Shown: positions 6,008 to 63,806, numbered from the stretch's first letter. The stretch is DNA of 64,000 nucleotides from an uncultured Alphaproteobacteria bacterium (GCA_963766355.1 CAVXZV010000006.1:7096-71095), one strand, 5' to 3'. Translations and numbers: made by a program. Notes: generated by a model not told the origin, from the sequence alone.

Positions 6008-6353
6008 CGCCCTGCAACATCGGTATTTTTACGCCGAAGTACAAGCAAAAGGCCTACGGGCGAGCGCGTCGCATTCCGAAAAATCCACAATAAGAACGAT
6101 GTGCGAACGAACGCCGTCCGAATCGCTAACCGACTCAATATCAGCCTTTGTTCTCATACTATAGGGGGTTTGTCAAGACTCGGACGGCACAAGTACTTGT
6201 GGATAGGCCGAACCATGGAGTCTCGCCGACTTATCCACGGAAACCTCCGTATGCTGAGCAACGTGACGTTTTCCCGACGGAATTTTGACAGCGGTAAAAC
6301 GCCCTTTGACCCTCTTTGAGCCGTGCGATACTCCCCCCGCTCCGGAGAAAACA

Positions 6354-11516: not shown

Positions 11517-11918
11517 CGTGAGATCTCGTTTGGTTGAAGCACGCTAGAGCTAGCATGCTGCGCTGCGTGGTCCAATTATGCTGTCGAACGCCGCGAGCGG
11601 CGACGTTATGCCGGTGGGAAAGTTAATTCGCGCGAGAAAGGCAGTGTCAAGTTGGCGTTTGACAGGGGGCGTGGCCGATTTTCATTGCGCTTCAAGAATG
11701 ATTACAAGCCGGAAACATTCTTAAATCTACGAAGGGCTAGCGCGACAGCCTCGCAAACAGGAGACAGCATGGCGCACGCTCTCAGCCGGGCATGGCGGAC
11801 CCGATGGGAAAGAAGGTCACGCCGGGGGCGTCACGCTATTGACGCACTCTATGCTTGACCCGCCGGGCCGCCCCCCTTATGTAGCCGCCTCTGCCCAAAG
11901 TATCTCAAGAGAACGCCC

Positions 11919-13123: not shown

Positions 13124-15023
13124 TTAGCGACGACCCGCGCGTCGGCGGCCGCGGCGTGTCCCACGTCCGCGGTCTTCGCGCTTCTCCGCGAACAGGCCGA
13201 TCAATTGATCGGTCATCGCGCCGCCCAGCTGTTCGGCATCCACAATAGTGACCGCTTTGCTGTAATGGCGCGTCACGTCGTGCCCGATGCCGATCGCGCT
13301 CAGCTCGACATTCGATTTTTGCTCGATATCTTCGATCACCTTGCGGAAATGGCGTTCGAGATAATTCCCGGTGTTTACCGACAGGGTCGAATCGTCGACC
13401 GGTGCGCCATCGGAGATCACCATCAATATCTTGCGCTGTTCGGGGCGGCCGGCGAGGCGGTTATGCGCCCACATCAGCGCTTCGCCGTCGATGTTTTCCT
13501 TGAGCAGTCCTTCGCGCATCATCAGGCCGAGATTTTTGCGCGCGCGCCGCCACGGTTCGTCGGCGTTCTTGTAAACCACATGGCGCAAATCGTTGAGCCG
13601 TCCGGGATGAGGCGGCTTGCCGTCGGCGATCCATTTCTCGCGGCTCTGACCGCCTTTCCAGGCGCGCGTGGTGAAACCGAGGATTTCCACCTTGACGCCG
13701 CAACGCTCAAGCGTGCGCGCCAGAATGTCGGCACACATGGCCGCCACCATGATCGGCCTGCCGCGCATCGATCCGGAATTGTCGAGCAGCAGCGTCACCA
13801 CCGTGTCGCGGAAGATCATATCCTTCTCTTGCTTGAACGACAGGGGATACATCGGATCGATGACGATGCGCGTCAGCCGCGCGGAGTCGAGCAATCCCTC
13901 TTCCAGATCGAAATCCCAAGAGCGGTTCTGTTGCGCTTGCAGCAAGCGCTGCAACTTGTTCGCCAGGCGCGCCACGACGCTCTGCATCGCCTGCAATTGT
14001 TGGTCGAGGAAATTGCGCAAGCGCGAGAGCTCTTCGGGATCGCATAGCTCGCCGGCCTCGATAATCTCGTCGAATTGCGCGGTGTAGATTTTGTAGCCCC
14101 ATTCGTCCTGGTTGGAGAACGGCAGGTCCGGCCGCCAGGGTTTGACGCCGTCGTCGCTGTCCTGGCTGTCCGACATTTCGTCGTTGTCGTCCGCGCCCAT
14201 CTGGGCCGCGTCTTGTTCGCCTTCTTCGCCCTCGGCTTGTTGCAGATCGGCGTCTTCGGACGAAGCTTCGCCGCGGGCGTCTTGTTCTTCGCCGCCTTCC
14301 TGGCCCTCCGGCTTTTCGTCGCTTTGCTCGCCATTGTCATCGGATTCGAGAATCGCTATCGCTTTCTTCGCCAAAATCGAGGTCTTTCAGCACCGTGCGC
14401 GTCAGCTTGGCGAAGGCCTTTTGGTCGCGCAGCACAGAAGACAGCTTGTCGAGATCTTTTCCGGCGCGCTTTTCGACAAAGCTGCGCCATAGATCGACCG
14501 CCGCGCGCACACAATCCGGCGGACGTTCGCCCGTCAGCTTTTCGCGCACCATAAGACCGAGCGCATCGGCGAGCGGCACATCCGCTTTGTCGCGCGCCTT
14601 GGCCATGCCGCGCGCGGCATATCTGGATTCCAGGCTGGCGGCGAGATTCTGGGACATGCCCTTCATCGCCAAAGCTCCGATGGCCTCCACGCGTGCTTGT
14701 TCGGCGGCTTCGAACAACGTGGCGGCTTCGGGCGAAGCAGGGCGAAGTTGGCGATGAACCTTATCGTCGTGATACGCCAGCTTTAGTGCCTGTGCGTCTC
14801 CGGATCCTCGAATGACGGCCAATTCGTTGGCAGAAACGGAACGAGAGGGAGCCGGCAATTGCGCTCTTCTTGGGCCGCTAACAAAGAACTGGGTAACCGC
14901 CGCCCACCAACTGCGCGGTTCGGTGACAAACGTGACCTCGAGTTCGGGCTCGCCCGCAATGGCGCGCAGCGCTCCGCTCACCGCGCGCTTCATGTTTTCG
15001 TTGGAGGAGTTGTCGGGGTTCAT
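13124..15023 (-). pseudogene. cobT: Cobaltochelatase CobT with one frameshift near 14350
   Basis: N-terminal ORF 14337-15023 and C-terminal VWA ORF ([22 protein letters not shown]) join by removing one base in an acidic linker. May be a sequencing error. Confidence 0.85.
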
Positions 15024-23366: not shown

Positions 23367-24315
23367 AGCGTGCGAAGCCGTCCGGCGATGCGCCGCTGAT
23401 CGAAGCCTTCCTCGATATGATGAGTGCCGAGCGCGGCGCCAGCCTAAACACCCTGTCGGCTTATCGCCGCGATTTGCTCGATTTTCATGGACATTTGGTA
23501 GCAAAAGGCGCGGACGCCAAACACGCCACGCGCGACGCATGTGAAATCCTATCTCGCCCGCTTGTCGTCGGCGGGTATCGCAGGCTCGTCTCAGGCGCGC
23601 CGGCTTTCGGCTCTGCGCCAATTCTTCGGCTTTCTCTATTCCGACGATATCCGCAGCGACAATCCAACCACGGCCGTGGATGCGCCCAAGCGCGGAAGGC
23701 CCCTACCCAAAACGCTGTCGCGTGAAGATTTGGATCTGTTGATCGAGGCGGCCACCAAAGGAGCCGCGAAAAGCGAAGAGGGCGTGCGCCTGCTCTGCAT
23801 CTTGGAGATGCTCTATGCATCGGGTTTGCGCATTTCCGAACTGGCGACGCTACCGCTCGCGGCCGTGCGCAACCTGGACGGCGTACTTCTGGTGAAAGGC
23901 AAGGGCAACAAGGAACGCATGGCGCCGCTCAATCCGCGTGCGCGCGAGGCCATTGCGAATTACTTGGCGGTACGCGAAGTCTTCCTGCCGCGCGGCGAAC
24001 GCCGCCGTCATGCCGAGAAATTCCTATTTCCCTCACGCTCCGCGGAATGCCATCTGACGCGCCGGCGTTGCCATCAATTGCTCAAGGAACTGGCGCAGGA
24101 AGCCGGGACTCGATCCCGACAAGTTGTCGCCGCACATCTTGCGCCATGCCTTTGCCACGCATCTGGTGGAAGGCGGCGCGGATTTGCGCAGCGTGCAGAC
24201 CATGCTCGGCCATGCGGACATCGCCACAACGCAGATCTACACGCATGTCGCCAAAGACCGCCTGGCGGCCACTGTCGCCGCCGCGCATCCGCTGTCGCGG
24301 ACAAGGAAATCCTAA
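23363..24315 (+). pseudogene. xerD: Site-specific tyrosine recombinase XerD, two frameshifts
   Basis: AERGASLNTLSAYRRDL / ARRLSALRQFF, LYASGLRISEL, GKGNKER / [41 protein letters not shown]. Probably intact in vivo. Confidence 0.88.
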
Positions 24316-50142: not shown

Positions 50143-50615
50143 GTGCCATGGACAAACCCGAGACAAAAGACACGAACCCGGTGCGCCGGTTCCGCGATTA
50201 TCGCTGGGACGACACCGAGCTGCTGGCCTACAAGGAAGAGGGCAGTGCGCCCTTTAAGGCGATCACCCGTCAAACTCTATTCCGCGATCCGGCCTTGCGG
50301 GCCGAGCTGCGCTATTTCGAAGTCTCGCCGGGCGGTTATTCTACGCTCGAACGTCACGAGCACATGCATGCCGTTCTGATCCTGCGCGGCCGCGGCGAAT
50401 GCCTGATCGGCGCGGAAGTGCGCAAGATCGACACCAACGATCTGGTGACGGTTGCGCCATGGACCTGGCATCAGTTCCGCGCCAATGCCGACGCGCCGCT
50501 GGGCTTTCTCTGTATGGTCAATGTCGAGCGCGACAAACCGGTGCAGCCCAGCGAGGAAGAACGCAAAGCACTGGAGTCCGACCCAAAGATAGCGGCGTTT
50601 TTATGCGGCGACTGA
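50139..50615 (+). CDS. Cupin, probable MTXu-5P methylsulfurylase
   Basis: YFEVSPGGYSTLERHEHMHAV...WHQFRA; ATGA-coupled to the RLP. Confidence 0.75.
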   Translation: MSAMDKPETKDTNPVRRFRDYRWDDTELLAYKEEGSAPFKAITRQTLFRDPALRAELRYFEVSPGGYSTLERHEHMHAVLILRGRGECLIGAEVRKIDTNDLVTVAPWTWHQFRANADAPLGFLCMVNVERDKPVQPSEEERKALESDPKIAAFLCGD

Positions 50616-50627
50616 ATTGTCGAAGTT

Positions 50628-50870
50628 CCCTCGCCCCCGCAAGGGGGAGAGGGTTGGGGTGAGGGGGTGCCGATATCAAGCGCGTGCTTGACGCTCGCGA
50701 GCACCATCCCATCCGCAGCATAGTCGTTCGAAAAGCGCGTCACGCGAAATCCTTGCGCCCGCAGAAACTCTTTACGAGCCGCGTCTTACGCTTCTCGCTC
50801 CACATGAAGCGGAACAGCCAATTCGGCGGGCCCCCTCACCCCGGCCCTCTCCCCCTTGCGGGGGCGAGGG
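50628..50870 (-). mobile_element. Internally deleted DUF559 unit between two inverted hairpins
   Basis: Relic PLHVEREA*DAARKEFLRAQGFRVTRFSNDYAAD...TPSP matches the C-terminus of 62483-62869; hairpins at 50628-50667 and 50832-50870. Confidence 0.75.
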
Positions 50871-51265
50871 TGGCCACTACTCTACTTCCCTAACCTCCGC
50901 AGGGCCGCGAGCGCAGCTCGCGGGTGAGGGGGTAATGTCCGACTTGCGCCGATTGTCGCCGTTTCGACTAACATTCCGGCGCGCTAGGTTGAATGGGTGT
51001 AGATTTAGAGGAGGGGGCAGAAGATGAGATTACCTGTCGGAGCGCTAATCGTCATCGTGTCCATTGCGATGACTCCAGTCACCGCGGATGCAACCAATGT
51101 CAATACGCTCTCTCCTGTTGATCAGGCACAACTGGTAAGCACCGCCGTCAAGCTGAGAGAGGCAATCCTTCATGTTGACCCCAAATCCGTGGTCAGCCTA
51201 ATTAGTTCATCTGACGGTCTCATATGCACCGACACCCAGTACAATAAGGCTCAAGTCCGTAAGTA

Positions 51266-52798
51266 GTCGCCTGTGAAGAACGCGGAACGTGTTGGTACGA
51301 CGGCATTTTGAGGGCTTGAGCAAGTAATCGGTTTTGCAGGGTTTGGCAGGATGGGAACACGAAAGCTTGCAATTTCGAGGAGCATTTTGCGGATTCCGTC
51401 GGGCCTCGATCTATGATTCTTTGAGCGCATCGGGAGGACATCGATGCGGCCAGGCAAACAGGAATGGACGGGCGCTCAGGACATGTTCCGGGCGCGGCTC
51501 GATCAGATCATCAATCTCAAGCACGAGCTTGTCCGTTTGGCGGGCACGATTGATTGGTCGTGGATCGACGCGGAGTTGTCAGGCTGCTTCAGCGACGAAG
51601 GCCGCCCCGGTCTGACCACCCGCTTCATGGTCGGGCTTCTGCTCTTGAAGCACATTTACGGGCTGTCGGACGAAGAGGTCTGCGCACGCTGGGTCTACGA
51701 TCCATACTTTCAATACTTCACCGGCGAGGAGTTCTTCGCCCACGAGTTCCCTCATGAGCGCTCCGGGATGAGCCATTGGCGCAAGCGCATCGGCGGCAAG
51801 CTGGATGTGCTCTTGGCCGAAAGCCTGCGGGTGGCGCATGCGAGCGGCGCCTTGAAGACGAACGATCTGGCGCGGATCACGGTCGATACCACGGTGCAGC
51901 CCAAGAACGTGACGCATCCCACCGACGCCAAGCTGATGCTGACGGCGATCGAAAAGCTCGGCGCCCTGGCCAAGTCGCAGGGGCTGAAGCTCAGGCAATC
52001 CTATGCGCGGCTGGCCAAGCGGGCGGCGCTGATGGCGGGCCGGTACATCCATGCCAAGCAGTTCAAACGCGCCAACCGGGAATTGAGGTTCCTGCGCACC
52101 CGGCTGGGCCGGTTGATCCGCGATGTCCGGCGTAAGATCGAAGGCAACGATAGGCTGCAGGAGTTCTTTGCCGAGCCGCTCGACAAGGCCCTCAAAATCC
52201 GCTGGCAAAATCACAACCAGCGCGGCCGTAAGATTTACTCCTGGCATGCGCCGGAGACCGAGTGCATCGGCAAGGGCAAAGCTCACAAGCCTTATGAGTT
52301 CGGCGTCAAGGTCTCCGTTACCACCACCAACCGCCGCTGCAAGGGCGGCCAGTTCGTCCTCCACGCCAAGGCGCTGCCCGGTAACCCATACGACGGGCAC
52401 ACGCTGGGCGAAGTGATCGAGGAAACGCAGCAACTCACCGGACGCGAGATCGAGCGGGCCTATGTCGACAAAGGCTATCGCGGACACAATGCCCCAAAGC
52501 CACTTCGGGTCTTCACCTCCGGACAGAAGCGCGGCGTCTTCGGCGCCATCAAACGCGAACTTCGGCGCCGCTCGGCCATCGAGCCGGTGATCGGACACAT
52601 GAAGAGCGATGGCCACCTTGGCCGCAATTATCTCAAGGGCCGCCACGGCGATCACACCAACGCCGTGCTCAGCGCCGTCGGCCACAATCTCCGCCTCATA
52701 CTCAGGTGGCTGAGGCTTCTTTTGTATCTGATCCTTGCAGCAATCCGTGATGCCGTCACACCGCTATCACCCCTCAAACAGGCTTCTTAACGGACGAC
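51266..52798 (+). mobile_element. IS5-family insertion sequence (~1533 bp)
   Basis: IRs GTCGCCTGTGAAGAA / TTCTTAACGGACGAC; flanking direct repeat TAAGTA at 51260-51265 and 52799-52804 (end and TSD boundary ambiguous by 2 bp). Confidence 0.88.
51444..52790 (+). CDS. IS5-family transposase (start may be 51483)
   Basis: ITVDTTVQPKNV, GKAHKPYEFGVKV, YVDKGYRG, RRSAIEPVIGHMK. Confidence 0.92.
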   Translation: MRPGKQEWTGAQDMFRARLDQIINLKHELVRLAGTIDWSWIDAELSGCFSDEGRPGLTTRFMVGLLLLKHIYGLSDEEVCARWVYDPYFQYFTGEEFFAHEFPHERSGMSHWRKRIGGKLDVLLAESLRVAHASGALKTNDLARITVDTTVQPKNVTHPTDAKLMLTAIEKLGALAKSQGLKLRQSYARLAKRAALMAGRYIHAKQFKRANRELRFLRTRLGRLIRDVRRKIEGNDRLQEFFAEPLDKALKIRWQNHNQRGRKIYSWHAPETECIGKGKAHKPYEFGVKVSVTTTNRRCKGGQFVLHAKALPGNPYDGHTLGEVIEETQQLTGREIERAYVDKGYRGHNAPKPLRVFTSGQKRGVFGAIKRELRRRSAIEPVIGHMKSDGHLGRNYLKGRHGDHTNAVLSAVGHNLRLILRWLRLLLYLILAAIRDAVTPLSPLKQAS

Positions 52799-53153
52799 TA
52801 AGTATCTCTCGAATGTGAATAGCATCCTGTATCAGGGCCTTTTCAACGCAGCGCGCTTCTCCCGTCGGTGTGGCGCTGGGTATCCGCGAGAAACACCAGC
52901 AACGTCTGAAAAAGCATTCTTTGAAACAACTCCCAACGGCAGCATTGAGATCAAGCTCGTTAGTGGCGCCTATGCCACCGTTAAGTTTGTATCGCCGAAA
53001 GCCGCGTACTACCCCCGAGAGTACACCTTCAAAAAAGAAGGAACGAACTGGACGCTCGTTGAAGGCTTCATCATCGGAAGTTGCACTTGTGGGTAAGTCT
53101 CGACGGCCTACGCTGCACGAGCGTGATCAACCTACTGACGAACGACCGCTCGT

Positions 53154-53242
53154 GGTGCAAGTCAGGCATTACCCCCACCCGAAGCGCTCCGCGCTTCGCT
53201 CGTACGCTGGCGCTGCTCGCCCCCGCAAGGGGAAGGTGAAGG
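53154..53242. repeat. REP-like hairpin unit with 23-bp inverted partner of 50928-50950
   Basis: CCCCCACCC-stem-CTGCTCGCCCCC-gcaa-GGGGAAGG; RC of 53154-53176 matches 50928-50950 at 20/23. Confidence 0.7.
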
Positions 53243-53277
53243 TATGAGTTGGGCACGGTCATTCTGCTTCACATGTT

Positions 53278-54126
53278 CTATCGCGGCTTCGCTTTGTCGC
53301 CGGCATTCATTTCCACGGTTCCCAGCGCTTCCGCTAGCCTTGTCTTCGCACTTCCCGGCATGAGCGGTTTTTGCTGACTTTCATGTGGCGACCAGCCCGT
53401 CAAGTAGACGATATCGAAGGTCGCGCGCAGCCGCCCATCGCCATCCGCGTATTTCGCCGCGTAATGCGCTAATGCGGCTTGAAGCGTCGCGCGCGATAGT
53501 GTTCCGGCACGCCCGACGAGGGCATTGGTTTCGCCTAATAGGCGCAAATCACGGACGAGTGTTTGGAACTGACGATAATGCACCGTGGTGCGTTCCACAT
53601 CGGCCACCGGCAGGGCGAAGCCGGCGCGCTGCAGCAAACTGCCCAACTCGCGCACATCGGCAAACGGCGCCACGCGCGGCGTGATCCCGCCGAGGGTCTC
53701 GACCTCGCCGGTCGCGAAGGCGTCGCGCAACTCCGTCAGAGTTGCGCCGCCGAACAAGGCCGCCACGAACAATCCGTCCGGTTTGAGCGCGCGCCTGATT
53801 TGCAGAAGCGCTCCGGGAAGATCGTTGAGCCCGTGCAACGACAATAGGCTGACCGCCAAATCGAAAGTACCATCTGCAACGCCGAGCTTTTCGCCGCCGT
53901 CGAACGTCGCGATATTCCACTCCGCCGCAGAACCCTGCAGCATCGCGGCCGAGCGTCCATCGACCGCCAGCGCGGAGTGGAACGGCCGGTTCACGGGCGC
54001 AAGGCGGGCTTTTATTCCCTCGACCGCTTCGCGCAGCAGAAAGCGGTCGCCTTCCATGCGCAGAGCGCGGGCGCGACGCATTGCCTGGGTGCGGGGATCG
54101 AATAGCAGAGGAGGGCCGTTCGCCAT
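53278..54126 (-). CDS. SAM-dependent methyltransferase (BioC/NDUFAF5-like)
   Basis: LSLHGLNDLPGAL, LKPDGLF, PRVAPFADVRELGSLLQRAGFALPVAD; divergent from comF. Confidence 0.85.
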   Translation of the reverse strand: MANGPPLLFDPRTQAMRRARALRMEGDRFLLREAVEGIKARLAPVNRPFHSALAVDGRSAAMLQGSAAEWNIATFDGGEKLGVADGTFDLAVSLLSLHGLNDLPGALLQIRRALKPDGLFVAALFGGATLTELRDAFATGEVETLGGITPRVAPFADVRELGSLLQRAGFALPVADVERTTVHYRQFQTLVRDLRLLGETNALVGRAGTLSRATLQAALAHYAAKYADGDGRLRATFDIVYLTGWSPHESQQKPLMPGSAKTRLAEALGTVEMNAGDKAKPR

Positions 54127-56540: not shown

Positions 56541-56954
56541 GTGATCGTCTACAACCTCAGATGCAAAAACGGCCACGAATTCGAGGGCTGGTTCCAAAGC
56601 GGCGAGGCGTTCGACGTCCAATGCGCGCAGAGAAAACTCCTCTGCCCGATGTGCGATACGCACCAAGTCGAAAAGGCCATCATGGCGCCTGCCGTGGCCG
56701 GGACGAAAAAGAAATCCGCCAAAGACGAATTGACGAAAATGCGCCAATTCGTAACCGGCATGCGCAAATACGTCGAAGAGAATGCCGAGTATGTCGGTCC
56801 GAGCTTTCCCGAAGAGGCGCGCAAAATCCATTATGGCGAAAGCGAAGAGCGTCACATCTATGGCGAGGCGACGCTGAAGGAAGCCAAGGAATTGATCGAG
56901 GAGGGCGTCGACGTCGCGCCCCTTCCGCCCAATTTGGATGAGACGGCGAACTAA
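56541..56954 (+). CDS. DUF1178 family protein
   Basis: CKNGHEFEGWF, CPMC, KAIMAP, EYVG..FPEEARKIHYGE. Confidence 0.88.
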   Translation: MIVYNLRCKNGHEFEGWFQSGEAFDVQCAQRKLLCPMCDTHQVEKAIMAPAVAGTKKKSAKDELTKMRQFVTGMRKYVEENAEYVGPSFPEEARKIHYGESEERHIYGEATLKEAKELIEEGVDVAPLPPNLDETAN

Positions 56955-56961
56955 TTGCCTT

Positions 56962-57007
56962 CCCTCGCCCCCAAAGGGGAGAGGGAGATTCTGATCTATT
57001 TCCCCGC
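56962..57007. repeat. Hairpin plus 12-bp copy of the ubiG 3' tip
   Basis: CCCTCGCCCC-caaa-GGGGAGAGGG followed by CTATTTCCCCGC (minus strand A-G-K-stop). Confidence 0.75.
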
Positions 57008-57341
57008 ATCAGCTATCTTATCTCAGCCCGCACCAAACAAGTTACATGGGGATCCAGGTTTTCGTATCACACGATACGAGACGAAGCGTCGCTGCAAGGT
57101 CAGCCATCGGACGACCGCGGACCTAACCCATTGGGCAGAAACGTGCCACTTGAGGACATTTGTCTGGCAGGCAAACCCTAGCTGTTCCTTAATATTTCTA
57201 TCCGAGCGGTAATTAGGCCGTCAGGTCACATCCCATAGACTGGCGACAGGCTGCCGATTGTATTGTTCCGTTCTCATTAAGACGTGAAGGCTATCGTTAG
57301 AGAATACGTCCGGCCGCCGACGGGGAGGAAATTGCACGAGC

Positions 57342-58622
57342 ATGATATCGGCAGTGAAATCTGTTTCCAGAACGCTCACGAGGCAGAGAATCGCCTTTGC
57401 CGTCATTGCTGGCTTGTTCGTCATTTGGGGGCTTGCCCTTTGGCTGTACAACGCGTTGTTTTTCATGTTCGCCAATTCCTTTGCCTTCGAACCCGTACAG
57501 GTAGCGTGGGCGCTTTCGCTTTACAGCATTGCCTACTGCCTTCTTGCGATTCCGGCCGCCCTGATTCACCGTCGCTTCGGCTACAAACTGGGCTTGCTGT
57601 TCGGCTTCAATGTTTTCGTATTTGGCGCGTTTCTGCTCTATCTCGCCATTATCCAAAACAGTATCGCTTGCTTCCTGGGCGCCATCGTGATGATGGGTTC
57701 TTGCGGGACATTGTTTGACACGTCTTTAAATCCGCTGGCGGTTGAAGCTGGAAGCCCGCAAACGTCCGTGGCGAGGTTGAATCTTGCCCATGTCTTTAAC
57801 GGATTCGGCCTACTCGTCGCTTACTTCGCCGTTATTTGGTTGACCGAAAGAAACTACCACCTGTCCCCAGGGGCGGAGGCGCACTCATCTTTACGTCCAT
57901 ACGTTCTTATCGGTTTGGCAGCCATCCTGCTGGCGTACCTTTTCGAGCAGGTATCGCTTCCTGGCTTTGCCGCCAATCCCACGGAGAGAGCTTCAGACAT
58001 CCGCGGGGAACTCCGCTCTTTGTTTCGCGACAGAAACTTTCTCATCGCCGCCACGTCGTTGTGCGCCTACACAATTGTGCTGACGATTCTCTGGACCTCG
58101 AACTACAATTACCGTGTGCATGAATTGCCGGGACACAGCGTCGGGCTCATTGAAAGAGGGCCCATCTGGTTCGTGATCGGACGGTGCGTTGGGACCGCAT
58201 TCATGCGTTGGATTGATCCAACCCGTCTGCTGCAGTGGACCACCGGCCTGTGCCTGATCGCGATCGCGATAACGGCAGCGGCAGGCGGCATGGTAGGCTG
58301 GGTGTGCCTGCTTTCCGCCAGTCTATTCCTGTCTATCATGTTCCCGACCGTTTTTGGTTCGGCAATCTGCCGACACCGGACTCGCATGAAACTTGCCGCA
58401 GGTGTTTTGGTGGCAGCGGCCGGCTTTGGCAACGCGCTGTCGGCGCTGTTTGTCGCACTGGCATTGCACGCACTGCACATAGACGCTCGAATAGTCATTC
58501 TCCTGGCTTTGCCGTTTCTGGCAATCATCCTGATTTATTCATTGGTGCAGCACTCGGGTCACAAGCGGGCACGCAACACCGAGCAACATGCAGTGACGCA
58601 GGCCAATGAGATTCTCATTTGA
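57342..58622 (+). CDS. MFS transporter, divergent FucP/GluP-like
   Basis: About 12 TM; RFGYKLG, DTSLNPL, RLNLAHVFNGFG, LSIMFPTVF. Confidence 0.78.
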   Translation: MISAVKSVSRTLTRQRIAFAVIAGLFVIWGLALWLYNALFFMFANSFAFEPVQVAWALSLYSIAYCLLAIPAALIHRRFGYKLGLLFGFNVFVFGAFLLYLAIIQNSIACFLGAIVMMGSCGTLFDTSLNPLAVEAGSPQTSVARLNLAHVFNGFGLLVAYFAVIWLTERNYHLSPGAEAHSSLRPYVLIGLAAILLAYLFEQVSLPGFAANPTERASDIRGELRSLFRDRNFLIAATSLCAYTIVLTILWTSNYNYRVHELPGHSVGLIERGPIWFVIGRCVGTAFMRWIDPTRLLQWTTGLCLIAIAITAAAGGMVGWVCLLSASLFLSIMFPTVFGSAICRHRTRMKLAAGVLVAAAGFGNALSALFVALALHALHIDARIVILLALPFLAIILIYSLVQHSGHKRARNTEQHAVTQANEILI

Positions 58623-58714
58623 GTTTGCGGCGCGCCGAGAGCAGGCACTACCGAGTGATCGATTTTGGCCCGAGGCTGCCGTAGCACCCCAACGGGGGCG
58701 AGGGAGAATCTGAT

Positions 58715-58998
58715 TTATTTCCCCGCCACCACCATGTAATTCACATCCGTATCGCCGGACTGTTTCCGCTGCCATGCCAAGGGATCGAAGCTCACGCCTT
58801 GCGCCTTCAGCACATGTAGGCCGGCGTCTTCGAGCAATTCCCGAAGCCGGCGAGGTTCGACAAAGCGGCTCCAGTCATGGGTGCCGCGCGGCAGCCAGCG
58901 CAGCAAATATTCCGCACCGATCTTTGCCAGCGCCAGCGACTTGAGAGTCTTGTTCAACGTTGCGACGAACATCAAGCCGCCGGGCTTGCCCAGCCGCC
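58715..58998 (-). pseudogene. Duplicated ubiG 3' end (284 bp)
   Basis: Aligns with 63079-63362; about 33 mismatches by manual count (~88%), mostly third-position. Confidence 0.9.
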
Positions 58999-59015
58999 AG
59001 TGTGAACGGGGCGGG

Positions 59016-59888
59016 CTAAATGCACTCAAATTGATCCAAAACGCCATCCGGTCGACGGTGCAAGGAACACAAACGCTCGCCGTTCTCAAATTCGACCGTG
59101 TAAATGCTGGACGGATTGTCACTGTAGACGGGGCTTCCGCCATCAGGCGACCAGCCTATGATCGGAAAATACTGGTTGACATAGACCACCGATACGATTT
59201 TTCCCAACGGACGTAGATCGTCTGGTGTCAAAAACGCAAATAGCTGCTTTTCTACATCAACTGGCAGAGGCACTACCGCTGGACTCGACAAAACATAGTG
59301 CGGCTTGGTGTAGGCCTCGGTAACATGCCCATCAGCCATTTCCTCCAACAGACGCCTCAGAAACGCGGATTGCCCGCCAGTGTCCGCAATGTTGTCGGAT
59401 AACACCGGTTTCGTGATCGTCATGGGCGCCCAGTTTTCGTGCAGCCGCCCGTCGCAGACCACGCCGAGATGTCCGAAAATCTCGGTCTTGGATTGCAGGT
59501 GACCGCGGAACGTCCAACGGCAACCCGAAGTGTTCCCCCAAACCACTTTCCAGGAAAGCACGACCAGCCCGCCCGCGTCGAGCGCTGCCCGCGATTCCCG
59601 CTCCGTGGTCTCAAAGCAGTTGAAACTGAATCCGGGCTCCGCAAGTCCTAGGCGGCAGTACATTTCCGGACCCATCATTTTGAAGAAGGCCCCATTCGAC
59701 CACAAAAGCGCCCGGCGCTCGTGCGGAGGAAATCGCCAAATGCCCGGAAGGACATTATTGGCCTCAACCATTACACGTTCAAGATCACCAGATGTAGCGC
59801 TTTCAGCCATGGCTGCCTCGCAGACAGCCATAGCTGAACAGACTACCGACAGCACGGCGGCTGCCGCTGTGTGGAATGCGCGTTTCAT
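59016..59888 (-). CDS. Hypothetical secreted protein
   Basis: Signal peptide MKRAFHTAAAAVLSVVCSAMA; lower GC; Cys-containing; no family recognised. Confidence 0.6.
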   Translation of the reverse strand: MKRAFHTAAAAVLSVVCSAMAVCEAAMAESATSGDLERVMVEANNVLPGIWRFPPHERRALLWSNGAFFKMMGPEMYCRLGLAEPGFSFNCFETTERESRAALDAGGLVVLSWKVVWGNTSGCRWTFRGHLQSKTEIFGHLGVVCDGRLHENWAPMTITKPVLSDNIADTGGQSAFLRRLLEEMADGHVTEAYTKPHYVLSSPAVVPLPVDVEKQLFAFLTPDDLRPLGKIVSVVYVNQYFPIIGWSPDGGSPVYSDNPSSIYTVEFENGERLCSLHRRPDGVLDQFECI

Positions 59889-60149
59889 GGAACCCTCAGT
59901 CACATTTAATGCGTTCAGACGACACATAGCAAGGCGCCGGTATTTGGATGGCCAATGTTGGTGCATTTGTGACGCAACAGGCACTAGTAATTCGGCGCCA
60001 CATCCGAACGCAAAAACGATGTCCGGCTCGAGCTGCGCAAGGAAATCTGCCGGACGCCCTGCGATATGCGCACTTGCGGCCGGGCAGGTGTCAAACCTAG
60101 GCTGGCCCGCCATCGTCTTGTGCCATCTTGGGCGCCAAAGGGGGAAGTC

Positions 60150-61523
60150 GTGAAGAACCAATGCATGCGGATCGTATTTGTTGCGGCGTTGTCGGGTTGT
60201 CTTTTGCCGCCGAACCTTGCAGTCGCTGCCGACCCCGCCTCAACCCAGCGACCTATGCTTGACAATGCGCAGGACCTTTTGCCCTTTTACCTCCCCAATC
60301 CTGCGTATTTGCGCGCGGAGGAGCAGCGGAAAGCAGGGGGGCATGACAACATCGAGGCGGCCGCGGCTTTGCTGTTGAGCAAAGCGTATGACGATCTGAA
60401 ATCCAAGAGCTGGACAGACGCGATATCGAAATGCAAGGAGGCTGGATCGCTTGCCGGTCTCTCGGATTTCGACAAGTTCTTGGTCAACTACTTCCTTGGA
60501 ATCGCCTATTACCGTCTGGGCGACACCGAGAATGCAGCAGCCTCGTACTACGCGGCAGCGCAGTTTTCTGGTGTGCGGGCGGACATGCGCACCACGGCCA
60601 TCCTGAGCGCCGCCCAGCTCGAGAACGACACCAAGCATCCGGACAAAGTCGCCATTCTTGTCAAGATGGCGGACACCGCCGGCATCGCCGACGAGAAAAT
60701 CTACGACCTCGGTGCTATCGCCTATTACGACAGCGGCAACGACGCGGAAGCGAGAACGATGGCCGACAAAGCGATAAGCCAAGCGACGAAATCCGGCCAT
60801 GGAGCGTCGCGCATCGGCTGCCAGATCGCGCTCATGGCGGAAGTTCGCCAAATGGATCTCGCCGCATTAAATCGCACGCTCAAAACAAGGTGCTCACAAT
60901 TCGGCGACAGCAAGGATTGGGGTCATCTGATCGACGTAGGTCTGGGTTCTCTGCGCCAAGGGGCATCTGATGAAGAGTCCGTCGATGTTGCGGCGTTCTA
61001 TATGTACCGGTTGCGCCTCCTCACCGATGCCGAATCCGGCAGCAACGACTATCTGATGGCGGCTGAGGCCGGCATCGACTTCGACACACCTGGCGATACG
61101 TATCTCGCCATCCGAACGGCGCACAAGCGCGGTCTGTTGAACGGCAATGTGCAGGCAAGCGCGATGCTTGCCATAGCGGACGAACAGGCGGCCAAAGATG
61201 GGCGCGCGGTGGCGGAGGCCAGGGCGAAAGACGGCGGTGCGCTGGTAGCGATTGGAGAACGTCAATTCGGTTACGGGCGCTATACGGACGCAATCCGCCT
61301 TGCGCGCGCCGCCTTGTCGAAAGGCGGCGGCAATACCGCTCATGCCCTCATGCTGTTGGGCGCGGCTCAAGTCATGAACGGCGAAAGCACGGCGGGAGCC
61401 GCAACGCTCGCGGGCATCTCCGGCGATCCAGCGATGGCGAAAGCGGCTCACTTGTGGTTGATCTACGCGACACAAACATACGGCCAGTCCGGTCCTTCCG
61501 CGGCAGCGACACCCCATTTGTGA
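60150..61523 (+). CDS. Secreted TPR-like helical protein
   Basis: Signal peptide; YFLGIAYYRLGD and similar TPR-like helices. Confidence 0.7.
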   Translation: MKNQCMRIVFVAALSGCLLPPNLAVAADPASTQRPMLDNAQDLLPFYLPNPAYLRAEEQRKAGGHDNIEAAAALLLSKAYDDLKSKSWTDAISKCKEAGSLAGLSDFDKFLVNYFLGIAYYRLGDTENAAASYYAAAQFSGVRADMRTTAILSAAQLENDTKHPDKVAILVKMADTAGIADEKIYDLGAIAYYDSGNDAEARTMADKAISQATKSGHGASRIGCQIALMAEVRQMDLAALNRTLKTRCSQFGDSKDWGHLIDVGLGSLRQGASDEESVDVAAFYMYRLRLLTDAESGSNDYLMAAEAGIDFDTPGDTYLAIRTAHKRGLLNGNVQASAMLAIADEQAAKDGRAVAEARAKDGGALVAIGERQFGYGRYTDAIRLARAALSKGGGNTAHALMLLGAAQVMNGESTAGAATLAGISGDPAMAKAAHLWLIYATQTYGQSGPSAAATPHL

Positions 61524-61819
61524 AGCTGTCGATCGTCCGTCGTTCCGAGACTTTGTCTTTGACAAGCCCCAAAAGGTCCGCTTCGGCGATCACAGAGGCG
61601 TGCTTTTGAAACATCGGCATGGTCGCCCCCGACAGCGCAACGAGCCCTAAACGGAAGCGGCGCGAATGGCGAGTTCTCGTCCTCTTGCGAAGGAGAACGG
61701 ATTACCGCTTTCGGGCTGACTTTTGCCGCTCGATCGAGGCCCGCCTCGCGCCAAGAGTTGCCGTTCGCGGCGCCGACTTGCTCGTGTATACTTCGTGGTG
61801 TCTGAATAGGTGAATCTCA

Positions 61820-62077
61820 ATGAGTGATTTCCTCTATTGGGCTTCGCTCATCGGTGTGCCGGTCGCCGTTGTGGTGTATGCCAAGTATCGACGCAGGCGG
61901 TTTGTCGCAAAACGAAACGACAGCGTAACAATCCCTGTTGCGAGTTCCGTCTGTGCGTTTACTGGCGACATCGTCGCGCCCGGCTCAGATTCATGTTGTT
62001 GGCCCGCCTGCGACGGCGCTCATGGGTGCGATGGCACTATGGCGCACGGTTGCGACGCCGGACACGGCGGACACTAA
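61820..62077 (+). CDS. Small membrane-anchored protein with Cys/His/Gly-rich tail
   Basis: N-terminal TM followed by KYRRRR, then SCCWPACDGAHGCDGTMAHGCDAGHGGH. Confidence 0.55.
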   Translation: MSDFLYWASLIGVPVAVVVYAKYRRRRFVAKRNDSVTIPVASSVCAFTGDIVAPGSDSCCWPACDGAHGCDGTMAHGCDAGHGGH

Positions 62078-62243
62078 CCAGCGGACGCACATCCCGAAAG
62101 ACGGTTCTGGCGCATCCCATCCGTTGAAACGCTGGGTGGCACCTCCGCTTTTGGACTATATCCTGCCATCGCGGCTGAGTATCGCGGGCCCCAATTGATC
62201 AGCCCGCTTAGAAACTAATTTTCCCGCTCCCTCCGCAGCGATC

Positions 62244-62457
62244 CCCTCTCCCCCGCAGGGGGAGAGGGTTAGGGTGAGGGGGTGCTGATATCGAGTGCGT
62301 TCTTTACGGTCACGAGCACGATGCCGATATCATCCGCGGCATAGTCATTTGGAAAGCGCAATACGCGAAAACCTCGAGCCTTAAGAAATGCATCACGGGC
62401 CGAGTCGTACTCAGCCCGTGCGGCATGAAACGGTCCATCCAATTCCACGATTAGCTT
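62244..62457 (-). pseudogene. 5'-truncated DUF559 copy (63 codons) plus terminal hairpin
   Basis: KLIVELDGPFH...GFRVLRFPNDYAADD...TPSP*, diverged from the full copy. Confidence 0.85.
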
Positions 62458-62482
62458 CCCTCGCCCCCGCAGGGGGAGAGGG

Positions 62483-62869
62483 TTAGGGTGAGGGGGTGCT
62501 GGTATCGAGTGCGTTCTGTACGGTCACGAGCACGATGCCGATATCGTCCGCGGCATAGTCATTTGCAAAGCGCAATACGCGAAACCCGCGAGCCTCTAGA
62601 AATGCATCGCGGGCCGCGTCGTACGCCGACCGGGCAGCATGAAACGGCCCATCCAATTCGACAATCAGCTTGTGTTCGACACACACGAAATCGACGATGT
62701 AGGGGCCGATGAGGAACTGACGTTTGAACTTATATCCGCCGAGTTTGCGATTGCGCACTTCGGACCAGAATAATTTTTCCATCGTAACCGGTTTGTGGCG
62801 CATCTTTCGCGCCCGCGTGCGGTTTTCGGTGAGCGATCTTCGCCCCTTTGCGGTTGTATCGCTGACCAT
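62483..62869 (-). CDS. DUF559 (Vsr-like PD-(D/E)XK) endonuclease
   Basis: MEKLFWSEVRNRKLGGYKFKRQFLIGPYIVDFVCVEHKLIVELDGPFH...RDAFLEARGFRVLRF. Confidence 0.9.
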   Translation of the reverse strand: MVSDTTAKGRRSLTENRTRARKMRHKPVTMEKLFWSEVRNRKLGGYKFKRQFLIGPYIVDFVCVEHKLIVELDGPFHAARSAYDAARDAFLEARGFRVLRFANDYAADDIGIVLVTVQNALDTSTPSP

Positions 62870-62970
62870 CCTCCTCACCCCGGCCCTCTCCCCCCATGGG
62901 GGAGAGGGAGATTATTATTCTACTTCCCTCGCCCCCGCAGGGGGAGAGGGTTAGGGTTAGGGTGAGGGGG
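62870..62970. repeat. Back-to-back GC hairpins upstream of DUF559
   Basis: CCTCACCCCGG-CCCTCTCCCC...GGGGAGAGGG at 62870-62908 and CCCTCGCCCCCGCAGGGGGAGAGGG-TTAGGGTTAGGGTGAGGGGG at 62926-62970. Confidence 0.85.
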
Positions 62971-63047
62971 TGCTGGTATCGAGTGCGTTCTTTACGGTCA
63001 CGAGCACGATGCCGATATCGTCCGCGGCGTAGTCTTTTGCAATACGC
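62951..63047 (-). pseudogene. Second, shorter DUF559 3' relic
   Basis: DYAADDIGIVLVTVKNALDTSTPSP*; 7-nt microhomology deletion (TTGC) at its 5' side. Confidence 0.8.
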
Positions 63048-63078
63048 CACACACGACAGCGGAGAGGGAGACTTCGAT

Positions 63079-63806
63079 CTATTTCCCCGCCACCACCATG
63101 TAATTCACGTCGGTATCGCCGGACAGTTTCCACTGCCACGCCAAGGGATCGAAGCTCACGCCTTGGGTCTTCAGCACATGTAGGCCGGCGTCTTCGAGGA
63201 GCTCGTGAAGTCGGCGTGGTTCGACGAAACGGCTCCAGTCATGGGTGCCGCGCGGCAGCCAGCGCAGCACATATTCGGCGCCGATCTTTGCCAGCGCCAG
63301 TGATTTGAGCGTCTTGTTCAAAGTCGCCACGAACATGAGTCCGCCCGGCTTGGTAAGCCGCCCGCAAGCGCCAAGATAGAAGCGCAGATCGGCGACATGC
63401 TCGACGACTTCCATATTCAGAACCACGTCGAAAGCGCGGCCCTCTTCGGCAAGTGATTCGGCCGAGGTTGCGCGATAATCGACGGCGAGCCCGAGGCGGC
63501 CGCATGGGTAGCCGCTGTTTTGATGTTTTTTTCCGAAGCGTCGGCCCCCAAAACATCGAATCCCAAACGGGCCATCGGCTCGCACAGCAGCCCGCCGCCG
63601 CAGCCGATATCCAAGAGGGAGAGACCTTGGAATGGTTTTAGTCCCTGGCGCCCGAAATGCTTGGCCGCGGTCTCGCGGATAAATCCGAGCCGGATGGGGT
63701 TGAACTTGTGCAGGGGGGCGAATTTGCCGGTCGGGTCCCACCATTCGGCGGCTATAGCCGTGAACTTCGCGACTTCGGCGGGATCGATGGAAGGAGCTTC
63801 GGTCAT
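63079..63806 (-). pseudogene. ubiG: Ubiquinone O-methyltransferase UbiG with one frameshift near 63490 (probably intact in vivo)
   Basis: [37 protein letters not shown] / [29 protein letters not shown]. Confidence 0.9.

Follow-up and report, generated by a model that had tools for sequence, protein, structure and literature searches.

This locus raises the question of how pieces of the 3' end of a housekeeping gene can come to stand, several times and with other genes between them, in the gap between that gene and its neighbour, when no mobility gene is at hand. The window analysed is a 64,000-nucleotide stretch of DNA from an uncultured alphaproteobacterium, and the interval concerned (56955-63362) extends from the conserved DUF1178 gene on the plus strand (56541..56954; Pfam PF06676, E = 4.8e-50), which forms the left border of the slot, into the convergent methyltransferase gene ubiG (63079-63806, minus strand). 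The interval is a real, only moderately unusual scar pattern in a peat-soil Rhizomicrobium. Full-length ubiG, tail included, is still present beside the orphan copies of its end. In the assembly it occupies two reading frames, and the methyltransferase Pfam matches are split across both; the one-base frame break at ~63488 is absent in other strains (contigs of runs X2 and X5 have an extra C at 63488/9), and the orthologue in the sister species G044 is a single intact ORF of 242 aa. A Pfam search confirmed the gene content (DUF1178, MFS, DUF559 and the ubiG methyltransferase) proposed in an earlier, sequence-only reading, as well as its view of the interval as free of integrases: no ORF between 56955 and 63362 contains a recombinase domain, and the nearest PF00589 match (C6:30807-31350), which is split, lies ~33 kb away. 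Integrase, excisionase, phage and conjugation genes were found neither in the interval nor up to 30 kb from it, and no Y1 transposase or other mobility gene in or adjoining it.

The repeated element, GAGGGAGA-N4-GATY-TATTTCCCCGC, occurs three times in the interval and never in shuffled sequences. A pattern search with GAGGGAGANNNNGATYTATTTCCCCGC gave exact matches at 56981-57007, 58700-58726 and 63064-63090 and no match in 100 shuffles, thus the threefold ubiG 3' junction described earlier is real. Junction 1 (56986..57007, minus strand; exact pattern match), which gives a BLAST match of 30-32 nt with the other junctions, consists of a 10-nt spacer and a ubiG remnant of 12 nt only (56996-57007). 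Next to it is a complete REP-type hairpin, H1 (56962..56985; CCCTCGCCCCC-AAA-GGGGAGAGGG, pattern match), and this junction is, as the sequence-only reading had stated for 56980-57007, the one that has kept the whole hairpin; of the two arms the others have only the right one. Junction 2 (58687..58714; repeat family D4, pattern match) comprises a truncated hairpin (loop and right arm) and a spacer, and at junction 3 the spacer is attached to the resident ubiG (63068..63806, minus strand). The orphan tails are all in the orientation of ubiG, and each has its own spacer and hairpin after it and unrelated DNA before it.

Short junction copies occur beyond these three as well. One of them, junction 4 (62909..62925, minus strand; a family D4 copy, 73%), consists of a spacer and a possible 9-nt tip (CTACTTCCC), which overlaps the next hairpin; another is at 50871-50890, where TCTACTTCCCT follows a unit as it does at junction 4. 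Taken alone, junction 4 is weak evidence for an orphan tip. Three further junction copies are on another contig (C12:116270, 118342 and 118791).

The hairpin, which had been taken for a ubiG-terminal insertion site, is not specific to ubiG; it forms the inverted termini of a DUF559 unit of ~453 nt. The full unit (62457..62909, minus strand) has 40-nt inverted ends composed of the hairpin and a GGGTGAGGGGG box (inverted repeat I3), and contains a DUF559 gene at 62483-62878 (Pfam E = 6.8e-37; closest structure PDB 3HRL, E = 5e-20). Two partial units, also on the minus strand, adjoin it: a 5'-truncated one (62244..62457; hairpin and the C-terminal 59 codons; family D3, 91% to the full unit; Pfam E = 1.8e-11) and an internally deleted one (62926..63067; family D2, 84%), in which the 3' hairpin, ~31 C-terminal codons and a right-arm remnant of the 5' hairpin are left. 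The hairpin is a REP-like dispersed repeat with 25 strict and 44 loose copies genome-wide, and an inverted doublet of it (I1) is present at 62866-62968. What had been read as a junction is the 5' hairpin of the DUF559 unit, a spacer of 10-11 nt and the end of ubiG. The DUF559 unit stands alone, 5-12 nt past the ubiG stop codon, in three related species (one of them in two records), and DUF559 follows ubiG in four species altogether, the present one (G000) and G044, G152/fen_915 and G083 with orthologues in the same place; most relatives are without it. In this Rhizomicrobium lineage the DUF559 unit directly follows the ubiG stop and takes up the space between ubiG and the convergent DUF1178 gene.

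The longest orphan tail, ubiG' (58715..58998, minus strand), comprises 94 codons and the stop codon, with no internal stop and no indel. In an alignment 58692-58991 and 63056-63355 are 87% identical over 300 nt. In the coding part ubiG' differs from the resident tail at 33 of 284 positions (11.6%; 6/3/24 by codon position), with 22 synonymous and 6 non-synonymous codon differences, in agreement with the ~12%, mostly synonymous divergence reported before. A neutral copy drifting in situ would be expected to show ~25 first- and second-position differences, and 9 were observed (P = 1.7e-4, codon-position test on 284 nt). The changes along the two branches, 5/1/6 by codon position for ubiG' and 1/1/17 for the resident tail, point to relaxed constraint on ubiG'. 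Together these figures indicate that ubiG' evolved mostly as a working gene under purifying selection and then decayed by ~3.5%. In a tree based on the 284 nt ubiG' is the sister of the resident tail (98% bootstrap) and not of an outside lineage, thus both alleles come from one side of the G000/G044 split. The proposal that one of the tails had come from another strain stands as far as evolution as a working gene in another lineage is concerned, and fails as regards a grouping with an outside lineage. Between G000 and G044 the ratio of tail to 5'-part divergence of ubiG, likewise based on 284 nt, is 1.60 (Fisher P = 0.024), a value equally high in 1 of 300 outgroup pairs; such a divergent tail would fit tail swapping.

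The inner end of ubiG' forms an illegitimate joint with the 3' flank of orfA (58984..58998), which falls inside a 15-nt microhomology, GCTTGnnnnnCCGCC, as seen in a three-way comparison with the resident ubiG and the orfA flank of the relative G154. This is the sole joint open to microhomology analysis; the other joints are without donor sequence.

The genes between the tails had been described as cassettes delimited by the junctions, but the edges of the cargo blocks (57162-58574 and 58984-61526) do not match the junctions. The first block (57162..58574, plus strand) carries a sugar-type MFS transporter gene (57342-58622; Pfam MFS_1, fucP-like NCBIfam match below threshold). It has orthologues, 88-89% identical at the nucleotide level, in another context on peat metagenome contigs (L094-L096), and the homology to these ends at 57162 and 58574. 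The second block is a divergent gene pair (59016..61523), orfA on the minus strand (59016-59888) and a TPR protein gene on the plus strand (60066-61523). The pair is 79% identical in nucleotide sequence to one that in G154 has spoVR on one side and an SDR gene on the other, and by this homology the block extends from 58984 to 61526. Pfam and further family searches gave no match for orfA and weak TPR matches only for the TPR gene. A small orphan ORF rich in Cys and His, orf85 (61820..62077, plus strand), was without match in Pfam and NCBIfam searches; its flanks (61665-61752 and 62129-62457) are shared by G044, in which they enclose an ankyrin gene instead. Profile searches of the cargo gave no toxin, immunity or defence matches. 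Judging from orthologues of 79-89% nucleotide identity located elsewhere in the chromosomes of relatives, the cargo is relocated chromosomal DNA.

In ~45 relatives DUF1178 and ubiG lie next to each other in convergent orientation, as the sequence-only reading had stated, and the comparison across relatives that it proposed revealed a variable slot. In most relatives the gap is 3-620 nt long and has unrelated content. The simple arrangement ubiG-[H-DUF559-H]-DUF1178 is present in fen_915/G152 and in G083, and G018 and G158 retain relic REPs. A separate stack occurs in the sister species G044, with entirely different cargo, the ankyrin protein and a 281-aa ORF, and with orphan ubiG tails of 78 and ~6 nt plus mini-tips of ~20 nt. 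The present genome has a second locus, downstream of valS, with three more hairpin-plus-ubiG-tail fragments. The stack there combines DUF559 units and ubiG tail fragments with orphan copies of the 3' flank of valS, an arrangement seen in run X8 too; ubiG fragments of 20-48 nt accompany the 5' side of the unit, and the 3' side ends exactly at the hairpin. Within the species no empty sites or intermediates were found, and all samples covering the region are alike except for one extra DUF559 unit. Excised circles and empty sites, which had been suggested as a check, were not seen in the reads.

In our judgement the balance lies slightly on the side of a sequential displacement of the ubiG 3' end, without an integrase, as the origin of the stack. 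Incoming DNA from diverged relatives would have carried ubiG with its own tail and whatever lay downstream; it would have recombined homologously within ubiG, and its far end would have been joined illegitimately inside or just past the tail of the recipient's ubiG. With each such event the previous tail would be left as a stub (12, 284 and perhaps 9 nt) and moved, with its former downstream context, towards DUF1178, the newest block would adjoin ubiG, and an integrase would be unnecessary. Formally, Campbell-type insertion of a circle would come to the same result, as would a tandem duplication whose interior was later replaced. The repeats with their variable lengths, the microhomology joint, the selection history of ubiG', the other stack in G044 and the stability across samples are established; in which order the events took place, which donors were involved, how their DNA entered and whether hairpins or DUF559 helped to start the breaks is inferred. 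The idea of sequential cargo addition at the ubiG end can thus be kept with regard to the stacking, the orphan tails and the probable order, and must be given up with regard to the hairpin as the site; the nuclease-assisted capture proposed with it was not supported. Several observations speak against displacement: the ubiG fragments at valS need an additional hairpin-mediated exchange, neither a donor genome with an intact ubiG'-like ubiG nor intermediates within the species were found, only one illegitimate joint was analysed for microhomology, and ubiG' groups with the resident tail (98%, 284 nt). Moreover, regions shared with G044 (~57047-57103 and 61665-61752) fall in different proposed layers; the former may be a mere REP remnant.

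That the 284-nt copy is an assembly artefact, a mis-joined allele of a co-occurring strain, is hardly credible. The genome was assembled from a metagenome and the samples hold multiple strains, but Logan contigs from six soil and peat runs (two, one of them probably of the source sample, belong to a single soil study and the other four to separate peat studies) cross the joints between the tip, the MFS block and ubiG' and between ubiG' and orfA, with 0-3 mismatches there. Independent contigs run past the ends of ubiG' into unique flanks (X2, 56976-58895 and 58872-62278; X6, 58596-58988; X8, 58947-59097), and X5 and X7 match 58560-58800 with 0 mismatches, which rules against the mis-assembly named as an alternative in the sequence-only reading. 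A purely local history, in which tandem duplications and deletions between palindromic hairpins took place in one lineage and the cargo arrived by unrelated events, agrees with the head-to-tail partial DUF559 units, with hairpins that are mutually direct repeats in both orientations, with the sister position of ubiG' and with the short tips, which are not datable. It is nevertheless improbable: the first- and second-position differences in ubiG' are far fewer than a copy drifting in place should have, its 94 codons are without stop or indel, and its inner breakpoint is away from any hairpin. Somewhat less probable again are decayed tandem islands, whose integrases would have targeted the ubiG 3' end, brought a replacement tail in attP and later been lost. 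In favour of such islands, the 3' end of the target gene is directly repeated on either side of cargo and one copy has diverged mainly at synonymous sites. Against them, the repeat length is different in each event (12, 284, 9, 78 and 6 nt), the genes carried are ones that relatives have as ordinary parts of their chromosomes, ubiG' ends on its inner side in a microhomology joint rather than an att core, copies exist at valS as well, and integrase, excisionase, phage and conjugation genes are lacking out to 30 kb.

An active DUF559/REP element is possible, if unlikely. The nuclease would cut at or near its cognate hairpins and a homing-like or one-ended-copy mechanism would follow, in which repair would copy the unit precisely from its 3' hairpin and overrun the 5' hairpin variably into ubiG; unit-plus-tail modules would spread, and cargo would be trapped at the breaks. 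A C-rich hairpin just upstream of 12 of the 13 DUF559 paralogues in the genome, in most cases with a matching downstream hairpin, speaks for such an element; the hairpin sequence varies among the paralogues, and these hairpins are members of dispersed repeat families. The truncated and internally deleted unit copies and the asymmetric ends of the units at valS point the same way, as does a difference of one unit beside DUF1178 between near-identical strains: loose contig ends in X2 and X5 carry the hairpin and the DUF559 3' end and, on the opposite side, ~94 nt of the DUF559 5' region, thus at least part of an extra unit lies between DUF1178 and H1. DUF559 has also been grouped with Vsr and the homing endonuclease I-Bth0305I (3r3p; PMC3424549). 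However, one DUF559 protein that has been characterised works in repair as a Vsr-like nuclease (PMC12907096), none of the DUF559 units showed a target-site duplication or a clean empty site, and the cargo joints are explicable without a nuclease. Across species the divergence of the ubiG-adjacent DUF559 is biased to third codon positions (22/14/61), which shows conservation under purifying selection and makes it look like a long-resident gene. Rather doubtful is the wider claim that DUF559 nucleases and their cognate C-rich hairpins constitute an undescribed class of repeat-associated nuclease element, a PD-(D/E)xK counterpart of RAYT/REP. If it were true, breaks at the hairpins would lead to one-ended copying, in which neighbouring gene ends accompany the unit, and to the capture of foreign genes where housekeeping genes end, and integrase-free cassette stacks would be a programmed outcome, not accidental scars.

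It remains to compare the displacement stack with known systems. The elements e14 and phage 21 integrate at icd by an integrase and restore the 3' end of the target gene by a tail borne in attP. The duplicated target 3' end, with one copy of mostly synonymous divergence, is common to these islands and the ubiG locus; unlike them, the latter has no integrase, no phage or ICE cargo and no fixed repeat length. A 27-nt junction is shared, but a fixed att core is not found, the ubiG repeats being 12, 284, ~9, 78 and ~6 nt long, which speaks against an integrase-type island. An integron or CALIN array is not indicated either: there is no integrase, the cargo blocks are multi-gene and in both orientations, and the hairpins, as judged by eye against attC, are 24-26-nt perfect GC palindromes without GTTRRRY cores. 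REPs and REPINs are dispersed GC-rich palindromes occurring in inverted doublets, and RAYT is a Y1 transposase gene flanked by its own type of repeat. Palindromes of this kind, dispersed and in inverted doublets, are found here too, as is a protein gene between repeats of its own type, but the flanked gene encodes a PD-(D/E)xK DUF559 nuclease and not a Y1 transposase; none of the 6 Y1_Tnp matches in the genome has the hairpin or the GGGTGAGGGGG box within 1.5 kb, which speaks against a REP/REPIN-RAYT system. With free-standing Vsr-like homing endonucleases (I-Bth0305I, 3r3p) the locus shares a small intergenic gene for a nuclease of the fold used by homing enzymes, its patchy presence across species at one site, and co-copied flanking sequence. 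It differs in that no empty-site target was found, the DUF559 gene is under purifying selection and appears to be a long-term resident, and the DUF559 protein studied in most detail acts as a nuclease in repair (PMC12907096).

Like the minimal mobile elements of Neisseria (PMC3082526, PMC1538595), the slot holds alternative cargo between the same conserved pair of genes in different relatives and has no mobility genes of its own. Those elements are exchanged by clean homologous replacement through two flanks, whereas here the old content is kept and stacked and gene ends are duplicated, which argues against clean cassette replacement at this locus. A close parallel is offered by the rhs, CDI and T6SS effector-immunity arrays (PMC5361080, PMC3240628), in which displaced 3' ends of a gene, with their old downstream genes, stand behind the complete copy. 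For the strings of orphaned 3' regions in rhs/T6SS loci homology-facilitated illegitimate recombination was proposed (PMC5361080). In these arrays, as at ubiG, there is no integrase, the conserved part of the gene has been proposed as the anchor and the far joint as illegitimate, and the newest module adjoins the gene. Three of the features expected of this class are present: a full gene followed by orphan 3' fragments of the same orientation with separate downstream content (in G044 too), a joint within a 15-nt overlap, and, on 284 nt, signs of a formerly functional orphan and a mosaic gene (P = 1.7e-4; ratio 1.60). The anchor in those arrays is a polymorphic toxin and here a housekeeping methyltransferase, the cargo here, a transporter, a TPR pair and orphan ORFs, is arbitrary and lacks an immunity logic that would account for its retention, and the stubs, of 12-284 nt, have a REP-bracketed nuclease unit at every junction.

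The end of ubiG occurs three times in the interval between DUF1178 and ubiG (56955-63362). The junction pattern GAGGGAGA-N4-GATY-TATTTCCCCGC had exactly three matches (56981-57007, 58700-58726 and 63064-63090) and none in shuffled sequences, as the sequence-only reading had proposed; a complete hairpin is kept at the first junction only. The stretch 63056-63355 is repeated at 58692-58991 with 87% identity. The coding part of the orphan ubiG 3' end concerned (ubiG', 58715-58998) differs from the resident tail, the 3' end of ubiG at 63079-63806, at 33 of 284 positions (6, 3 and 24 by codon position). In terms of codons, 22 differ synonymously and 6 non-synonymously, and the copy has neither stops nor indels, thus the description of a diverged, mostly synonymous 284-nt copy was accurate. 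Likewise, the expected convergent arrangement of DUF1178 and ubiG was seen in about 45 relatives, in which the gap measures 3-620 nt and contains unrelated small ORFs or other repeats.

The source genome is a metagenome-assembled genome of 4.5 Mb and 59% GC, in which the window corresponds to C6:7096-71095. The stretch is present in soil and peat metagenomes, and the nearest ubiG loci are from fen, peat and soil MAGs named as Rhizomicrobium and Micropepsaceae. DUF1178, MFS, DUF559 and the UbiG methyltransferase are all supported by Pfam, and the same search detected no recombinase domain in the interval. No integrase was found within 30 kb of it either, in line with the claim that the stack is integrase-free; the sole integrase-like sequence on that side of the contig is a tyrosine recombinase domain split across two adjacent frames (23712-24255, C6:30807-31350), approximately 33 kb away. 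The cargo genes matched no defence or mobility family, and PADLOC returned no match for any of them or for DUF559. In the assembly the resident ubiG consists of two reading frames (63417-63806 and 63079-63744) with a break near 63488; its orthologue in the sister species, G044, is a single intact ORF of 242 aa. Contigs of two metagenome runs, X2 and X5, have an extra C at 63488/9, and those of a third, X1, do not reach 63488. Either the MAG consensus is wrong here, or ubiG, an essential ubiquinone gene, is truly frameshifted.

The suspicion that ubiG' might be a mis-assembled allele can be dismissed, because Logan contigs of several soil and peat metagenome runs span its joints. The X1 contigs show no differences to the window, and in X2, which represents a close strain, one contig extends over 56976-58895 and a second over 58872-62278. 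Moreover, 58596-58988 is spanned in X6 and 58947-59097 in X8, and exact matches to 58560-58800 are present in X5 and X7. Since independent contigs cross them, the MFS/ubiG' and ubiG'/orfA joints are real in several samples from different studies. A search of the reads for empty sites, circle joints and the donor allele yielded none; candidate joints were traced to copies from the valS locus or to hairpin repeats. The stack looks old and fixed, with one exception. The X2 and X5 strains carry extra DNA between the DUF1178 stop and the complete hairpin at 56962-56985 (window 56950-56976), which opens with a hairpin and a DUF559 3' end, ends with a DUF559 5' region and thus contains at least part of one DUF559 unit; the final 11 nt after DUF1178 are also different in these strains. 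This difference is a strain-level presence/absence of one DUF559 unit, or at least of part of one.

The hairpin itself (CCCTCKCCCC-loop-GGGGMGAGGG), previously taken for a ubiG-specific site, proved to be a dispersed repeat with 25 strict and 44 loose copies in the genome. With the adjoining GGGTGAGGGGG box it makes up the 40-nt inverted ends that enclose the DUF559 gene in a unit of 453 nt (62457-62909); partial units lie on either side, at 62244-62457 and 62926-63067. The junction is composed of the 5' hairpin of this unit, a 10-11-nt spacer and the ubiG stop. A simple state, consisting of the ubiG stop, 5-12 nt, one full unit and DUF1178, exists in the fen_915 MAG (identical to G152) and in another relative, G083; two further relatives, G018 and G158, have a repeat remnant only. 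Among the species with the unit, DUF559 has diverged mainly at third codon positions (22/14/61 by codon position), hence it is a maintained gene. The nearest solved structure to the protein is 3HRL. The family has been grouped with Vsr and a homing endonuclease (PMC3424549), and one member acts as a Vsr-like nuclease in Caulobacter (PMC12907096).

The sequence GCTTGCCCAGCCGCC at 58984-58998 matches both ubiG (GCTTGGTAAGCCGCC) and the 3' flank of orfA in the relative G154 (GCTTGCCCGACCGCC), and the ubiG'/orfA joint is thus a microhomology joint. A tree built from ubiG tails places ubiG' and the resident tail as sisters, apart from G044 (98% ultrafast bootstrap). When polarised with G044, the changes by codon position are 1/1/17 on the resident branch and 5/1/6 on the ubiG' branch (Fisher P = 0.03). 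A copy drifting in place would be expected to show approximately 25 first- and second-position differences versus the 9 seen (P = 1.7e-4), therefore ubiG' belonged to a working ubiG during most of its divergence; it has since decayed by roughly 3.5%. Two alleles separated by about the sister-species distance reside in one genome, which means that at least one was imported, and the earlier proposal of a foreign ubiG tail thus stands in outline. Between the window's genome and G044 the tail/5'-half divergence ratio of ubiG is 1.60 (Fisher P = 0.024), a value reached by 1 of 300 outgroup pairs; this unusual tail divergence is compatible with tail replacement.

The cassette limits given in the sequence-only reading had to be revised, the cargo blocks being 57162-58574 and 58984-61526. 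Their base composition is only slightly AT-richer (0.53-0.59 vs 0.59) and uninformative. Three peat metagenome contigs carry orthologues of the MFS block (57162-58574) with 88-89% identity, in different surroundings that lack hairpins. The divergent orfA-TPR pair (58984-61526) is 79% identical to a pair located between spoVR and an SDR gene in G154 (G154:C15:129000-141000, 4385-7263), where inverted hairpins of another type (ACCTCCCC), both accompanied by a GGGTGGGGG box, enclose it. The spoVR-SDR slot of the window's own genome (C10:95800-102000) is occupied by unrelated genes and a 484-aa ORF, which, judged by its N-terminal sequence only, looks like a putative IS4-family transposase. The presence of orfA-TPR in one genome and of unrelated genes in the other identifies this gap as another variable slot. 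Elsewhere in the window, the 2.7 kb at 50600-53284 bears no resemblance to the 2.6 kb that G044 has in this position; it opens with a DUF559 unit carrying an internal deletion (50628-50870), after which comes TCTACTTCCCT, and includes a 448-aa ORF (51444-52790), which by its appearance we take to be a putative IS5-type transposase. Comparison with G044 at window 50628 and at valS revealed no clean empty sites for DUF559 units, and target-site duplications are unreadable at both places because the entire downstream region differs in G044.

The G044 interval, with flanks about 89% identical, is 3.3 kb long. Its cargo genes are different ones, for an ankyrin protein and a 281-aa ORF, and alongside them are two DUF559 units (one full, one deleted), an orphan ubiG tail of 78 nt that has decayed, mini-tips of about 20 nt and a 6-nt tip. 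Both at the resident gene and at the 78-nt orphan, the spacer and the real tail are separated by these mini-tips (CTACTTCCCCACCACCA...; contig G044:C30, locus positions 11890-11913 and 13488-13510), which repeat the ubiG end in tandem with small deletions. In the window's own genome, three hairpin-spacer-ubiG-tail fragments of approximately 48, 30 and 20 nt lie downstream of valS (C12:116220-118830), with BLAST matches of 37 nt (94.6%, E = 5.5e-9) and 32 nt (90.6%). At this locus there are also three copies of the valS 3' flank with hairpin and, besides a 170-nt repeat, two DUF559 units with internal deletions and two small cargo ORFs; the arrangement is repeated in run X8, and the genes after valS in G044 are unrelated. 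Of 200 genomes of the genus searched for the hairpin-spacer-tip pattern, only the window's genome (4) and G044 (2) have more than one copy. Single matches in other genomes were near chance expectation, and apparent second ubiG tails in more distant species were chance matches or split genes, G044 having the only real one.

Read in the direction of ubiG, the layout of the window's genome is ubiG - spacer - deleted unit / tip - spacer - full unit ... orf85 ... TPR - orfA / ubiG'284 - spacer - half hairpin / ... MFS ... / tip12 - spacer - hairpin - DUF1178, and that of G044 is ubiG - hairpin - cargo / tip6 - spacer - deleted unit / tail78 - spacer - full unit ..., where a slash marks an inferred end point of incoming DNA. 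At each break the incoming DNA would have ended within or just beyond the old ubiG tail, and the stack was probably built by sequential displacement, a process not requiring an integrase. Sequential addition had been suggested from the sequence, and this is right in outline. An alternative reading, one insertion of 4.5 kb relative to G044, depended on 60 nt of similarity at 57047-57103 that may be a REP remnant only, and for this reason we do not rely on it.

Displacement alone does not explain the ubiG tail fragments at valS. Nor does it explain why 12 of the 13 DUF559 paralogues of the genome (e.g. C1:105517-109323, C21:160810-161184, C36:32055-32357 and C13:47778-48125) have a C-rich/G-rich hairpin of their own type just upstream, most with a matching one downstream; the hairpin sequences vary (CCTCCCCC, CCTTCCCCCC, ACCTCCCC, CCCTCTCCCC), each coming from a repeat family with dozens of copies. 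Both observations would fit the idea that the DUF559 nuclease or its hairpins start the breaks, which we consider unlikely, and its strongest form is more doubtful still. A RAYT link found no support, there being no Y1 transposase with these repeats; Rfam gave only spurious, miRNA-like matches on the inverted hairpin doublet, and no paper describing DUF559 as a mobile or repeat-associated unit turned up in the literature searched.

Under sequential displacement, accessory genes can pile up at the terminus of a core metabolic gene with neither integrase nor transposase, leaving a readable record in the form of orphaned gene ends. The pattern is found again in G044 and at valS, in each case next to a DUF559 unit bracketed by hairpins, which raises the question whether the nuclease genes and repeats make these sites prone to recombination. 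DUF559 nuclease genes are very common and uncharacterised. If they or the repeats promote recombination, many alphaproteobacterial 'hypothetical endonuclease plus REP' loci would gain a function; if they play no part, the stack illustrates well how illegitimate recombination shapes the genomes of soil bacteria in nature. Toxin loci have so far supplied most descriptions of such a record of orphan ends; there, the retention of old content is accounted for by immunity genes. The orphan 3' regions at rhs and T6SS loci were attributed to homology-facilitated illegitimate recombination (PMC5361080; PMC3240628), and the layout pattern proposed there is the same as in the stacks of the two genomes compared here.
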